Shown here: positions 1,573 through 49,718 of the stretch, one piece after another
Position numbering within the stretch: position 1 is the stretch's first letter
Layout of the letters: the number at the start of each line of letters is the position of its first letter
Source of the DNA: Eledone cirrhosa
Taxonomy: Eukaryota
Direction of reading: 5' to 3'
NCBI GenBank assembly: GCA_964016885.1
Contig: OZ024740.1
Span: 242,358,001 to 242,422,000, forward strand
DNA length: 64,000 bases
Position numbers and translations under genes: made by a program
The notes under the pieces: generated by a model
Database searches by the model: none
The model's input: only the letters and a program-made list of their open reading frames with translations
What the model was told of the DNA's origin: nothing

Positions 1573-1767
1573 TAACGAATGAAATGTGGTAAGGAACCAG
1601 GTGGACCATAACGCACCAAAGTACTCGATACTTAGGGTAGTAGAGTGGGTAATAGGAACAAGTAAGACCCCGACGGCTGAGCTCAAGCCGTTTCGACGGC
1701 TAATTCTGTACTCAATTAGCCGTCGAAATGGCTTGAGCTCAGCCGTCGGGGTCTTACTTGTTCCTAT
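1573..1767. mobile_element. Fold-back element family P1 with HHR 3' half
   Basis: 54-bp arms 1652-1705 / 1714-1767 (1 mismatch), 8-nt loop; left arm continues ~80 bp to (TA)n. The left arm read on minus gives GAAA-CGGCT..AGCCG-TC-GGGGTC; the right arm has TGGC for CGGC. Flanked by (TA)n. Confidence 0.8.
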
Positions 1768-1816
1768 ATATATATATATATATATTATCCTCACCATTTA
1801 CCATATATTTATCATA

Positions 1817-2640
1817 TATGAGGTCTGTAGAAAAATATCCAACTTTAAGAAGTAATGACATTAAGGAGAGAGGAATGTGCAGATTGAAGCCAAATACATT
1901 CATGCGAGCTGGCTGGTTGTGTCAGTCGCTGTGAGATAGCCAGCGTGTGAGGTGCTGTACTACTTACTCATTGCATTTTCATTTCACCTGATACTGCCAA
2001 CAAGGATTCTGAGTTCCTGAATACTGTGATAACTGAAGTTGAGACATGAGTGTCTAGGTATGACCCAGAATCCAAAGCTCAGTTATCATAGTTGAAGCAT
2101 CCAACATTGCAAAGGCCCAAAAAAGCATGTCAAATACAGAGCAAAACCAAAGTAGTGCTGATTGTTTTGTTTGTTTGTTGTTATTTTTTTTTTTTACTGA
2201 AGCATTGTGCAACATAAATATGCACCAAAAGGAAAACAGTTACAAATGAGTACTATCAGGATGTCCTCCAATGTATTTGTGATGTAGTTCAGACATCATG
2301 CAGACTGTGATGGCAGAGCTCAGAGCTATTTTGGAAGGAGCATTTCAAATTTTAAGGTACCAGGATTACATGAAAGACACACATTTGAAGGACTATCAAC
2401 ATGTTGAAGCTGATCCATAATACACATTCATTCTCCTTTTTATTGCAGTTGTCAGGCAAGCGTTCTGGCACTAGCAAGATTGTCTGATGTGGCCATGTTG
2501 GAACACTGTCTTAAAGGGAGTTAGTTGATCATATCAACCCCAGTACTCAAAAGGATGTCCTCCAATATCTTTATGATGCAGCTCAGTGCAAGAGACCGGA
2601 TCTGTGGGCCTTGAAAAACTGGAAAACTGCTAATTTACAG
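1817..2640 (+). mobile_element. Mariner (Tc1/mariner) transposon relic with decayed transposase
   Basis: TIR-like tatgaggtctgtagaaaaatatcc at 1817. 2005-2293 translates as DSEFLNTVITEVET*VSRYDPESKAQLS*LKHPTLQRPKKACQ..., matching mariner FLxxxITGDETW-YDPETKxQSxxWK-PKK. A continuation at ~2551-2625 reads DVLQYLYDAAQCKRPDLW. Confidence 0.8.
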
Positions 2641-3067
2641 GACATAAAAACAGACACAGTCACCAAGTAAACATGGTCATGGGAACACGTATACACATGA
2701 CAGGTTTCTTCAGTTACTGTCTACAAATTTTTGTCACAAGGCATTGGTCAACCCAAGCAAAAAGTGCTACAAGGTAGGAATGAGTCTGATACCAGGTAAT
2801 TGCAAAGCAAATTACTACTGTATAAAAATAACTAGAAAAAGATGTTCCATTTGTGTCCTTAAATATTCTATACAAAGAATAAATAAATGAAATAACTGAA
2901 AGTAAAGACAAATTGCTAAAAATGATGACAATGTGGTAGTGTATCATATTTTATATTTAGATATGTATTATGATGTCAAATATATAATGTACACACTTGA
3001 ATTATCTCAATAAAAGCATTATAAATTCAAATATAGTACATTAAAATCCCTTAAATATTGAGCTTCA

Positions 3068-3260
3068 AATAATTGTTTCTACTTTTGGCACAAGGCCAGC
3101 AATTACCCAGAGCATTACTGGTACTTTATTTTATCGACCCCGTAAGGATGAAAGGCAAAGTTAACCTCGGTGGGATTTGAACTCAGAATGGCAAGGGCCA
3201 TAACTCTATACGTCAAAGCATGGCATCCGACCCTCTACCGATAAAGCTAATCCACCGCCC
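3068..3260 (-). mobile_element. SINE family B copy
   Basis: Reverse complement of 52068-52260. Confidence 0.8.
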
Positions 3261-3820
3261 TTGAACTTCAAATAATGATAGTCCTTCAAATGTGCATGCT
3301 TCTGTATGTATATGTACATATACATGTAATTGTGGTACCTTAAAATCATTTAGTTTTATTATGTATCTAGTTGCTGCATCAAGCTGTAGATTATGTAATG
3401 TGATGGGTATCAGGAGCAAAAATAGTGTTACGTAAGATATGAGAATTCATATTAATTTCAACATCAAATCAAACATGGAAAATATATTTTCCTGTTGTAT
3501 TCAAAGAATAAAAAATGAAAACAACTGTTATTATCAAAATATAAAAGACTTCCCAACAAACTAATATAAAAATAAATAAATAATCTTTAATAATTGTTTA
3601 CTCATCTTTTATAACGATAAAATATGTTATAATCTATATAACACTAAGTACTAATATTTCAAATGCAAAATAGTAAATTTAAAATAATACTTATCAAATA
3701 ACATTTTTTTTACTTCCTGCCAACAAAATGTACTAACTGGATAAATTATGTTTAAAGAGCCCTCTTCCTCCTTCAATTGGATTTAAACCTTATTTTCCTA
3801 TATATATATATATATATAAT

Positions 3821-47109: not shown

Positions 47110-47425
47110 CATTTCATTTTCATTTCATTTTACGTCCACTTTTCCCTGCTTGCAAGGGTGGGACGGGAACTGATTCTGGCTTGATTTTTACAGCTGGATG
47201 CCCTTCCTAACACCAACCTCATTTACAGTGAGTGCTGGGTGCTTTTTTGCCGTGGCACCTTCACGACCACTTTGCAGTGGAATGATAGGGACCCCAGTCC
47301 CTATCATTTCATTTCTACAGCTGAGTAAACTGGAGCAATGTGAAATAAAGTGTCTTGCTCAAGGAAACAACAGATCACCTGGTCTGAGAATTGAACTCAC
47401 AATCTTTCGATTGCCATGTGCCCCC
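47110..47425 (-). mobile_element. Near-identical second copy of the composite SINE (head partly deleted)
   Basis: Aligns with few differences to 50060-50350. Confidence 0.8.
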
Positions 47426-49095
47426 ATTATATATATATATATATGTATGTATATACACACATACAGATATTTGGTATACAAAAGGAAATAAAAGTACTAA
47501 ATACATGAGGTTTGTTTATTCATTGATCTGTCCCCTGACCAAATGTACACAAATAAACAACTCAGAGTAACAACAGAATGAAATCATCTTCAAACGAGTG
47601 CATATGTGTATTTATTTTGTTCTTGTTTTTTTGTTATCCTTTTGTAACTGTATTTCCAGTGAAATATGCTTTATCTCAAATAAAAAATGAAATTTTTTTA
47701 GAGATTTACTGAAACTATTATATCTATACCAGGGACCCATTAGCATCCAATATGTGGGGTTTGATTCCTTGCAGGCTCCTCAGTCCACTTTTGTCGATGC
47801 TGGTTTGCCAGAATTATGAAAGCATTCCATCTTTTCAGGGGTTCAATAAAATAAAATACCATAAAGTACTGGGGTCAATTTAATTAACTTTCCCTCCACC
47901 AAATTTACTAGCTATATGCTTATGTTAAAAACAATTATTTCATAACTAAGGTAGTAACTTAACACATAGTTCATACATAAAATTAGGTTGGAAAATTTTA
48001 ATCAAAATAGGAACGTTTTATCTAAAGCTGGGATTTTTTTTTTAAAGGAACTTGAGCCAGTTTTGGCCAGATTGATATGAAAATGGTTAAAATACACTGT
48101 TTATATGTTTCAATTAATTTTTACATCCATAAAAAATTTGGAGAGATGTTTTTGTAAAATAACTAACTTTAGCAATGAAACAGGTGTTTGGGACATGACT
48201 TCAATAAGATTATGATATGAATAATTCAAAATAAGAGTTCTTGTATCATACAAGCAGAGATAGTGTCATGTGGGTTGGTGTTTATACTCTATATATATTA
48301 TTGTATTTTCATGGTATTTTCACATAATTATCTTACATAATGTCAAATCTATTTGATTTTGATATTATTTATTTTGAGAACAATACCTTAACATAAGTAT
48401 AAGTGGCCGGTTACAGCTGATTTGAATAGAAAGAAGTGAGTGAATTCTGGCTGGATACAGCCGGTTTAAATGCTAAAGGGTTAAGGAGATAGCTATGATA
48501 ATGTTACAACTAGTTTGGAAACTCTGATTATCATAATTCATGAATTTATTGGATAAGGCAATTAGTTAGTAAACAGAAAGGTAACTGTTAAAATGCTGCC
48601 AAACTATAATATGACGCATATTGTCAAAATGTAAACTTCTAATTCCACCAAGCCAGCTATAAATTGGTATAGAATTTCAATATATAGGCAATATTGGAAG
48701 AATATATATATGCTTTACATTTATATTTAAGATCTAAATACTTACATCATAAGAAAACCTCAAGTGTGTGTGTGCATATATATATATATATTCACACACT
48801 CACACACACATACGATATTCATATAAAACCTGCCAGATAGTCCTATAGGAGCAAGACACGGTCACCCAATCAATCTTGCCTCAAGTGGGACAACTCCCGT
48901 CTAACCCATGCTAGCATGGAAGATAGACGTTAAACGATGATGATGATGATGATACATATATATATATATATATATATATATATATATAGTAATAATAATT
49001 ATGAAGACCAAAATACGAAGCAGTCTCGATAAGGATTGTATATATATATATATATATGAGGGTGTTAAAGTTTGCTTGAAGCATTGTGAAATGTG

Positions 49096-49520
49096 TAAAA
49101 TACGTAGTTAAGAAAGCCACAACAATGCAGAGGGGAATCTCGAGGTAGGAAGTGAATGATAGATAGGAGAAACAGGTGAAAGTGAAAATTGAGAGAGACA
49201 AAGATGAAAACAAAACAAAGGTAGAAGGGTTACCGTAGTGGAGATTTAATCCCAATATTTCGGGCTCACGCCTGTCTTAACGACATCACAACTTTCTCCG
49301 CTTGGCCTGTTCCCCCTCTTTTGGAACTTTTCCCCCGTTGATGGGCGTGAGCCCGAAATATTGGGATTAAATCTCCACTACGGTAACCCTTCTACCTTTG
49401 TTTTGTTTTCATCTTTGTCTCTCTCAATTTTCACTTTCACCTGTTTCTCCTATCTATCATTCACTTCCTACCTCGAGATTCCCCTCTGCATTGTTGTGGC
49501 TTTCTTAACTACGTATTTTA
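49096..49520. mobile_element. Fold-back element P5, ~177-bp apparently perfect arms
   Basis: Arms 49096-49272 / 49344-49520; identical peptides on both strands in the ORF track (MGLNLHYGNPST...TTYF). The inner end reads gggcgtgagccc-GAAA-TA-TT-ggga. (TA)n flanks. Confidence 0.9.
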
Positions 49521-49601
49521 TATATATATATATATATATATATATATATATATATATATATATATATATAAAAGTATATATAAACCCATAGAGCAAATAT
49601 A

Positions 49602-49718
49602 TATTACTAGTACAGATTAAAGGCTAAGCAAAGAATTTCTGCTTTCACCCTATTATGGGAGTATTAGAAGAGCCCATAATAGGATGAAAGTAAAAATTCT
49701 TTAATCTGTACTAATAAT
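49602..49718. mobile_element. Small fold-back element P6
   Basis: tattactagtacagatta...aaagaatttctgctttcaccctattatggg / cccataataggatGAAAgtaaaattctttaatctgtactaataata; TA-rich flanks. Confidence 0.65.

Follow-up and report, generated by a model that had tools for sequence, protein, structure and literature searches.

Short hairpins in Eledone cirrhosa as head-to-head 3' ends of Penelope-like elements whose arms end at a family-specific point

Palindromes that carry fragments of a hammerhead ribozyme raise the question of what fixes the point at which their two arms meet. In a 64,000-nt stretch of the Eledone cirrhosa genome (contig OZ024740.1, positions 242,358,001 to 242,422,000; hereafter, the window), five such palindromes (P1 to P5) and one collapsed copy had been described from the sequence as a class inverted at hammerhead stem II. 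All six were recovered where they had been placed (Table 1). TTTC and GAAA are symmetric in all five palindromes, with the single exception of AAAA in place of GAAA in the right arm of P3, and each has a one-sided extension; all except P2 lie in (TA)n. The list proved selective, since it omitted P6 and P8, which carry the hammerhead 5' half on both arms and bring the head-to-head pairs of the window to seven, all read here as 3' ends of Penelope-like elements (PLEs).

Table 1. Features of the window, numbered from its first letter
Feature	Position	Strand	Remarks
P1 tail	1573..1651	-	79 nt; left arm only
P1 left arm	1652..1712	-	Hammerhead 3' half, to predicted +1, 18 nt before GAAA
P1 extra G	1713		After left arm
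P1 right arm	1714..1767	+	Without tail; from 11 nt before GAAA (1725-1728) to (TA)n
P2	6895..7338	.	Palindrome 6914-7167; old element; arms ~73% alike (BLAST, whole span)
Solo P1-family tail	27031..27095	+	Partly deleted; flanked by TA runs
P8 head-to-head pair	27767..28479	.	Palindrome 27805-28479; tail left, 27767-27804
P1-family copy, centre collapsed	30118..30279	.	Tail 30118-30195
P6 head-to-head pair	30390..31012	.	Palindrome 30432-31012, largest in window; tail left, 30390-30431
P3	31290..31600	.	Palindrome 31290-31536; tail 31537-31600
P5 tail, far end	48986..49035	-	Split from P5 by P4 insertion
P4	49058..49520	.	Palindrome 49096-49520; tail 49058-49095
P5	49571..49718	.	Palindrome 49602-49718; centre 5' of stem II

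Penelope-like identity and abundance

The palindromes are almost certainly head-to-head 3' ends of PLEs and not MITEs, although annotators would label them MITEs or unclassified repeats. The PLE origin proposed in the original prediction was borne out by non-inverted parents linked to GIY-YIG open reading frames (ORFs), in the order GIY-YIG ORF, pseudo-LTR, hammerhead, short end, and tail. The C-terminal GIY-YIG endonuclease upstream of the pseudo-LTR, typical of EN+ PLEs, was identified by Pfam in the parents of P4 (E = 1e-4) and P3 (E = 1.4e-6). For P1, the GIY-YIG assignment comes from Atlas look-alikes and a motif: the parent ORF (Atlas score of 0.96-0.97) falls with clusters in which GIY-YIG is found in 23% of members or HTH_animal in 17%. 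Pfam gave no match for the P1 and P5 parent fragments, no ORF was found for P2, and an RT profile had no match in the parent ORFs, searched as C-terminal fragments. The elements share three further traits with EN+ PLEs: a tail at one end, an inverted 5'-truncated head-to-head copy, and a hammerhead in the pseudo-LTR.

Hairpins of this class amount to tens of thousands of copies. P1 forms 13,787 exact palindromes in the genome, more than the copies that keep a U3-A8 core (3,066, with all four letters at free position 7). Short fold-backs occur about once per 11 kb here, and long head-to-head pairs, kilobases apart, were also found. In a sample of 1.464 Mb (the window and 14 arbitrary 100-kb blocks), 78 of 130 short fold-backs had the outward-facing motif GAAA-stem III-UH, against 19 with the inward-facing motif and 21.8 expected from shuffles, in line with the predicted enrichment. 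When counted per family, the motif was outward in 24.2 of 57, inward in 11.8, and expected in 10.4.

Such copy numbers, the 95-98% identity among P1 copies, and the long inverted arms would also suit self-propagating non-autonomous units, either MITE-like DNA elements or a hairpin SINE spread from few masters. In MITEs, the ends are symmetric, and both interior and target duplication are fixed, whereas here the tail makes the ends asymmetric, the arms are continuous with GIY-YIG parents, and the interior varies, with 29 distinct centres among 30 P1 junctions. The data so far support an absence of large groups of copies with a private centre in common. No fixed target duplication is discernible in (TA)n. 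Self-propagation is thus highly improbable, and because nearly all centres differ, the P1 hairpins are best taken as independent events.

Hammerhead motifs and the stop point of the arms

The pseudo-LTR hammerhead has a U3-A8 core in P1 and P3, a canonical core in P2 and in a further family, H, and is also found in P6 and in families Q and R; the core of P5 has one change and that of P4 is degenerate. When seven P1 parent copies were aligned with two arms from the window, 93.5% of 138 cells agreed with a full type I hammerhead; the alignment has no compensatory change, and the P1 parents have the conserved core with three helices. An Rfam scan of the window returned 132 weak matches and no hammerhead, and folding single parents by minimum energy failed to reproduce the complete hammerhead. 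Stem I of the P1 parent is as predicted, its core is of the U3-A8 type, and its stem II has a 45-nt loop, which is absent from the palindromes. The core of the P2 parent is canonical, with 10 bp in stem I and ~100 nt in stem II. For P3 and P4, a hairpin of 12-13 nt within the arm makes up the native stem II, and the family centre lies upstream of the core by ~40 and ~75 nt, respectively. Stem II is usually whole in the arms of P3, P5, P6, Q, and R. CUGAnGA was also sought 8-38 nt before GAAA as the mark of a P1 parent; the 23 matches included no clean parent and were chance, odd junctions, or P1 arms joined into hammerheads of other families.

The arms in the window vary in content. The left arm of P2 extends up to the core and the right one begins mid-loop, and the family sequence goes on rightward to at least 7338. 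P6 has exact CUGAnGA on both arms (30663-30669, -; 30793-30799, +) and its centre ~90 nt upstream of GAAA; each arm of P8 has a hammerhead-like motif with a long stem II and one change in CUGAnGA. The left arms of P3 and P4 end 12 and 11 nt before GAAA, and their right arms extend to 58 and 84 nt. The longer arm of P3 holds the U3-A8 core (31428-31434) and a whole stem II (31435-31447), and that of P4, a young element with outer arms identical across ~170 nt, holds the native stem II (49343-49354) and a degenerate core. In P5, the native stem II is complete on each arm, and the right arm has a degenerate core (49665-49671). The inner spacers measure 30 (P1), 133 (P2), 67 (P3), 93 (P4), and 39 nt (P5). 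The reading of the 3' motifs as hammerhead 3' halves stood and extends to P5, said to fit only up to GAAA, whose left arm also fits a 3' half. CUGAnGA is missing from P1, and the stated absence of the core fails for the right arms of P3 and P5, with their U3-A8 and degenerate cores.

The original prediction had stem II of the ribozyme prime a snap-back, yielding ribozyme-disarmed hairpins as a class. The P1 centres do fall within the stem II span, seven copies of family H have their centre at stem II, and one P1 copy (L149) has the native loop; the short arm measures 11-14 nt in 7 of 20 asymmetric P4 loci and in about 10 of the 50 asymmetric P3 copies listed (by eye). Nevertheless, a snap-back should retain the native loop and the native 5' strand, and P1 palindromes lack both. 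Family H, with its canonical hammerhead, has 2,583 intact copies against the 7 centred at stem II, and 1,593 P3 copies are centred far upstream against 243 asymmetric ones, whose short arms scatter from 4 nt up. The P3 and P4 of the window are of this minority asymmetric type. None of the three predicted CTGAnGA parents was found, and the distance of GAAA-stem III-UH from the centre ranges by family from 1 to 300 nt. The stem II rule is refuted as a general rule, and this origin for the class is very improbable; the apparent stem II of the palindromes is mostly a mirror created by the inversion. In P4, the 5' edge of stem II may be a minor stopping site (the 7 of 20 loci above).

The arms instead end at one family-specific point, and not at stem II. 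Measured against chosen parents as references, the end falls 10-22 nt before GAAA in 66 of 68 P1 arms, 53-63 nt before it in 14 of 18 P3 arms, and 88-96 nt before it in 13 of 19 paired P4 arms; none of 41 Q arms passes 27 nt before GAAA. The 68 P1 arms remained from 125 unselected ones after removal of the reference parents and of third-subfamily arms without a matching parent. In another set of 60 P1 arms, 10 run 2-4 nt beyond the predicted +1, partly by chance match. P5 arms, mostly unpaired, spread across 0-500 nt. The strength of the rule varies by family, since arms of family H have no pile-up near the hammerhead.

This stop point is likely the transcription start of the element RNA, because a TATA-like box lies 29-31 nt upstream of it and an initiator-like site at it in three families. 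In P1, the distance from the first base of the box to the boundary A is 29-31 nt, and in P3 and Q it is 30 nt (Q by eye); CCAAT boxes are found farther upstream. Two P1 parents have a weaker box. TATA-like sequence is only roughly placed in P4 and R (about -23 to -27, by eye), and P5 has the initiator-like site and no TATA box at -30. The boundary could otherwise be another RNA end or a strong stall (splice acceptor, processing site, or structure), with the same joining of two cDNAs. The Penelope intron of Drosophila lies just downstream of the start (PMC2377424) and ends at helix I (PMC4209133), and the P1 boundary is inside a long hairpin. Such an end is improbable given the promoter-like signals at matching distances in three unrelated families; moreover, the boundary base is an A and not the base following AG, and the P3 boundary is outside the predicted hairpins examined. 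For P1, the predicted promoter probably lies within stem II of a U3-A8 hammerhead, and a start inside stem II would explain why CUGAnGA is missing from its half-ribozyme hairpins.

Two observations touch the P1 boundary. An extra G precedes the boundary A in 13 of 16 arms ending exactly there and resembles a cap signature; it is often explained by the other P1 arm as well and was therefore not counted as evidence. The depth of raw RAD reads over a P1 parent drops ~50-fold at the boundary; most molecules end at one restriction-cut-like site, and the drop was likewise set aside.

Tails and a proposed joining step

Among 92 unselected pairs from seven families, 83 had one tail only, 1 had both, and 8 had none; of the query-selected pairs, 62 of 67 had one. 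Independent choice would give one tail in at most half, suggesting that two starts are used in a coupled way. In vitro work on another PLE, according to the sections of PMC11167929 cited here, established that its protein, a predicted dimer, cleaves AT-rich DNA on both strands and that reverse transcription begins at two internal sites, close together, which bound the tail. We propose, with a probability of about 0.6, that each hairpin stems from one event in which two cDNAs are extended to run-off at the 5' end of the RNA and then joined; twin priming is, on balance, the joining step that we favour. The pseudo-LTR promoter (CCAAT box, TATA-like box at -30, initiator) would start an RNA whose first 60-300 nt would comprise the hammerhead region, short end, and tail. 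One cDNA would be made from each RT start site, primed by opposite nicked (TA)n strands on an uncleaved RNA; both would reach its 5' end and would then be joined by microhomology or a few added bases. The position of the start relative to the hammerhead would set the hairpin content: a start inside the stem II loop would leave the 3' half only (P1), and in P3, P6, Q, and R, the whole ribozyme would be found on both arms.

One tail, near-identical arms, and variable centres would also follow if a single tail-primed cDNA ran off the same RNA 5' end, self-primed a fold-back through microhomology, and was copied to the short end. Self-priming has been proposed for PLE junction palindromes in the part of PMC3846280 dealing with them (cf. 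Arkhipova 2013), and some P4 junctions have short repeated jumps. The tail arm should then always reach farther upstream. In a small tally by eye, it was the longer one in 6 of 24 pairs and the tail-less arm in 7 (6 equal, 5 unclear), and the tail sits on the shorter arm in P4 and P5 of the window, making the fold-back an unlikely, though not negligible, alternative to two joined cDNAs. The chance of assembly fold-back artefacts is close to nil. P4 has identical arms, and raw RAD reads on a P1 parent have a strand-switch joint in only 3 reads of one run; against this, arms diverge with age (P2, P3, and P5), one element is nested in the tail of another, the one-tail rule holds, and the contig depth of run X1 drops ~27-fold across the same boundary in the P1 parent.

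How PLE inverted ends and one-sided tails form is named an open problem in the relevant passages of PMC8557442, and later integration steps are left unvalidated in those of PMC11167929. The start-point rule, if true, would be a testable rule for PLE insertion: the independent junctions, in their thousands, together with arms that stop at a fixed point and a one-tail rule that is nearly strict, give predictions for the existing in vitro system, and the junctions would also map PLE promoters from DNA alone. Octopus has exceptional double-stranded RNA potential, with repeats left unanalysed (PMC5625713), and in a cephalopod host, the hairpins are candidate ADAR substrates. A wider reading is offered tentatively. 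These would be strong-stop hairpins by rule, in which a dimer uses both RT starts on one RNA, each copy is extended to run-off at the capped end, and the transcription start of a family can be read from the joint to a few bases; the promoter of the commonest family would have moved into stem II of a U3-A8 hammerhead, leaving half a ribozyme at the 5' end and a whole one at the 3' end, and the hairpins could be a main source of double-stranded RNA for cephalopod hyper-editing. With a half-ribozyme 5' end, the far end would be cut and the template end spared, and it would be unusual for a hammerhead to gain position dependence from a promoter within one of its stems.

Comparison with known systems

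Twin priming of L1, associated with Ostertag and Kazazian, reportedly yields two cDNAs from both target strands and a microhomology joint. The internal site used by the second L1 primer varies, and the two products have no overlap, whereas here the starts are fixed and the overlap gives a palindrome. Non-LTR retrozymes, which derive from PLE pseudo-LTRs (bioRxiv 10.64898/2026.07.22.740005), are, like MITEs and the present hairpins, short, non-coding, and of high copy number. Retrozymes form head-to-tail tandems with intact ribozymes; the window elements are single head-to-head pairs with no head-to-tail tandem units.

Head-to-head PLE palindromes, tails, and U3-A8 cores are already published; we found no description in the literature of the start-site rule or of a promoter nested in stem II. 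The minimal PLE hammerheads of Cervera and de la Pena (2014, PMC4209133) are, as here, of type I, located in pseudo-LTRs, with a palindromic stem III, a U3-A8 variant, and opposite-strand pairs 100-700 bp apart. In contrast to these, stem II here can have inserts of 45-100 nt and that of P1 holds a predicted TATA box and start. Penelope/Poseidon and Neptune elements, as described in the portions of PMC8557442 and PMC3846280 used here, share the inverted copy that is 5'-truncated and located at the 5' end, the head-to-head layout with a palindromic junction, one-end tail, (TA)n bias, and C-terminal GIY-YIG; those portions give no start-site rule for the junction, and in the present pairs each of the two copies is reduced to 60-300 nt, ending at a single point specific to the family. 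For Poseidon of Anolis in vitro (Frangieh 2024), the sections of PMC11167929 cited above report two RT starts bounding the tail, an AT-rich double-strand cut, a predicted dimer, and an uncleaved RNA template, as proposed here; the results in those sections are silent on product joining and the inverted copy, to which the one-tail rule and the run-off boundary are the additions made here.

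Hammerhead palindromes in the window and in the sampled genome

Palindromes P1 to P5 and a collapsed copy were present in the window as originally described, and self-BLAST added two large ones, P6 and P8. They are head-to-head pairs of 3' ends of Penelope-like elements (PLEs), in which each half is an arm and an extension on one arm a tail.

Features of the window
Feature	Coordinates	Strand	Remarks
P1	1652-1767		palindrome
P2	6914-7167		palindrome
Open frame, 5,012 aa	8953-23991	-	single frame
24-nt tandem repeat, ~8 kb	10400-18576	-	inside the 5,012-aa frame; encodes a Glu/Lys/Pro/Val/Thr-rich octamer
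P8	27805-28479		palindrome; self-BLAST
P6	30432-31012		palindrome; self-BLAST
P3	31290-31536		palindrome
Repeats of the tRNA-matching dispersed family	38590-38791, 41264-41570, 58252-58573
P4	49096-49520		palindrome
P5	49602-49718		palindrome
Weak tRNA match	50318-50375	-	in dispersed repeat family

The assembly, which probably belongs to an octopus-like cephalopod, is 3.0 Gb in size and rich in (TA)n. A 1.464-Mb sample, composed of the window and 14 blocks at arbitrary round coordinates, contained 130 short fold-backs of 57 families (2.0% of bases). The hammerhead 3' half pointed outward in 78 of them, versus 19 in which it pointed inward and 21.8 after shuffling in two-letter blocks; counted per family over the 57 families, the values were 24.2, 11.8, and 10.4, respectively. 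The distance from motif to centre ranged from 1 to 300 nt and was family-specific. These PLE hairpin elements are unevenly distributed over the genome. The block C5:60000001-60100000, with 48% GC and no microsatellite masked, had zero fold-backs, and C8:30030001-30100000 just three. A SINE-like family lacking the outward motif accounts for some of the short fold-backs (L104-L113; block offsets 22686 and 26446), so not every palindrome of the genome is PLE-derived. In the window, P4 is inserted in the TA-rich portion of the P5 tail, which it splits (48986-49718), and a solo P1 tail lies between TA runs (27031-27095), beside a copy of the P6 family, at its 3' end.

The two non-repeat parts of the 5,012-aa frame gave no Pfam match. 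This frame is probably one giant exon, and the hairpins may be located in introns of its gene. The dispersed family with the weak tRNA match is probably a tRNA-derived SINE.

Position of the inversion and the non-inverted parents

The original prediction grouped these elements in a class inverted at hammerhead stem II. This class falls: a centre inside stem II is a family trait of P1 only, and family H, recognised through Rfam, showed 2,583 intact hammerheads versus 7 stem-II-centred copies (17 head-to-head pairs, 0.65-7 kb apart, were counted among the first 100 copies listed). Counted upstream from the hammerhead GAAA, arms ended at 10-22 nt in P1 (66/68 unselected arms) and at 53-63 nt in P3 (14 of 18); none of 41 arms of Q, a further family of the sample, ended beyond 27 nt. 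Paired arms ended at 88-96 nt in P4 (13/19, query-selected loci) and at 22-25 nt in P5 (7/11), the 40 unpaired P5 arms being scattered across 0-500 nt. Genome-wide, the P3 spacer measured 103-133 nt in 1,593 pairs versus 58-88 nt in 243, the minority that includes the window copy. Window-like P4 copies occupy 20 loci in the genome, and P4 may have a further, minor stop where stem II begins on its 5' side (7/20 loci, by eye). The family-specific arm ends and the intact H hammerheads indicate that the "stem II" of the original prediction is mostly a mirror made by the inversion. Even for P1, a snap-back primed on stem II would preserve both the loop and the 5' strand of the native stem, and its palindromes have neither.

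P1 is a young, abundant family, with its top 40 genome matches 95-100% identical, its mirrored centre matched exactly at 13,787 loci, and TA-rich repeats flanking all 30 copies inspected. A search for CUGAnGA upstream of its GAAA gave 23 matches, with no clean parent among them; the true parent was recognised from non-inverted copies in the sample. Its order is stem I, U3-A8 core (a hammerhead core variant), G-C closing pair, stem II (6 bp, loop of ~45 nt), GAAA, stem III, and cleavage triplet; stem I is as predicted, but the core is not CUGAnGA. Across 7 parents and 2 window arms, 93.5% of 138 cells agreed with the hammerhead fold, and no compensatory changes were seen in this alignment. The core occurs 3,066 times in the genome, and in the 100 occurrences listed each of the four letters is seen at position 7. 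The ORF upstream of the hammerhead has GIY-YIG-like motifs and gave no Pfam match; look-alikes of its protein in Atlas, a protein cluster resource, scored 0.96-0.97, included GIY-YIG and HTH_animal clusters, and were mostly molluscan where the source was known. Lone P1 arms were fused directly into, or just past, the core of other families' hammerheads (L033, L034, L038, L042, L043, L045, and L051), as found with a search pattern that itself selected such joints; they may reflect chance, or unrelated PLE RNAs or cDNAs captured during joining.

In the other families, the P2 parent combines a canonical core with a stem I of 10 bp and a stem II of ~100 nt, and no ORF was seen. The P3 arm itself carries a U3-A8 hammerhead whose stem II is 13 nt long, and the native stem II of P4 is a 12-nt hairpin within the arm, the P4 core being degenerate; both parent ORFs match Pfam GIY-YIG (E = 1.4e-6 and 1e-4, respectively). 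The P5 parent has a short stem II and a core differing by one letter. Each of the two arms carries a canonical hammerhead in the P6 family and a hammerhead-like motif in P8.

Predicted transcription start and formation of the pairs

The arm boundary is predicted to be the transcription start of the element RNA. In P1, the boundary A lies within an initiator-like site, 29-31 nt downstream of a TATA-like box, with a CCAAT box ~88 nt upstream; the TATA box and predicted start are both inside stem II. The TATA box begins 30 nt upstream of the boundary A in P3 and likewise in Q (by eye), the spacing matches only roughly in P4 and R (another further family), and no TATA box was found at the P5 boundary. 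Raw reads were of limited use: contig depth of run X1 falls ~27-fold across the P1 boundary, and a step in RAD-read depth is confounded.

Exactly one tail was present in 83 of 92 unselected head-to-head pairs from seven families (both tails in 1, none in 8) and in 62/67 query-selected pairs. The 30 P1 junctions, formed by short overlap, blunt joint, or insertion, had 29 distinct centres, and three raw reads switch strand at P1. The simplest reading, to which we give a probability of roughly 0.6, is twin priming, known from L1: two cDNAs would run off the 5' end of the RNA, giving a head-to-head pair. The Poseidon protein cleaves both strands of AT-rich DNA, with a dimer predicted, and reverse transcription begins at two sites bounding the tail on uncleaved RNA (PMC11167929); every arm here spans the hammerhead cleavage site, in agreement with such a template. 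A single cDNA folding back on itself is unlikely. It predicts a tail arm that is always longer, whereas among 24 pairs judged by eye this arm was the longer one in 6 and the shorter one in 7, with 6 pairs equal and 5 unclear. At P4 junction centres, the first 15-20 nt are duplicated in short tandem (L181, L182, L193, and L208), and these duplications resemble repeated template jumps at the RNA end.

Comparison with known elements

In a search of mostly open-access papers, no description was found of a start-site rule, of one tail as a strict rule, or of a promoter lying within stem II. The octopus repeat paper (PMC13282606) does not mention such hairpins under the terms searched; a paper on RNA editing reports exceptional double-stranded RNA potential in octopus (PMC5625713). 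Of interest are an arm stop that is specific to each family and falls at a predicted start of transcription, the rule of one tail per pair, the promoter nested in P1, and the scale. The original observation stands in part, and its interpretation is likewise supported in part. The elements are PLE products with a known architecture. Inverted 5'-truncated PLE copies, one-sided tails, and a (TA)n bias are already published (PMC8557442), as are head-to-head junction palindromes with a self-priming proposal (PMC3846280) and U3-A8 cores with opposite-strand hammerhead pairs (PMC4209133). The pseudo-LTR contains a TATA box and initiator in rotifer PLEs (PMC3846280) and the mapped promoter of Drosophila Penelope (PMC2377424), and retrozymes derive from PLEs (bioRxiv 2026.07.22.740005).
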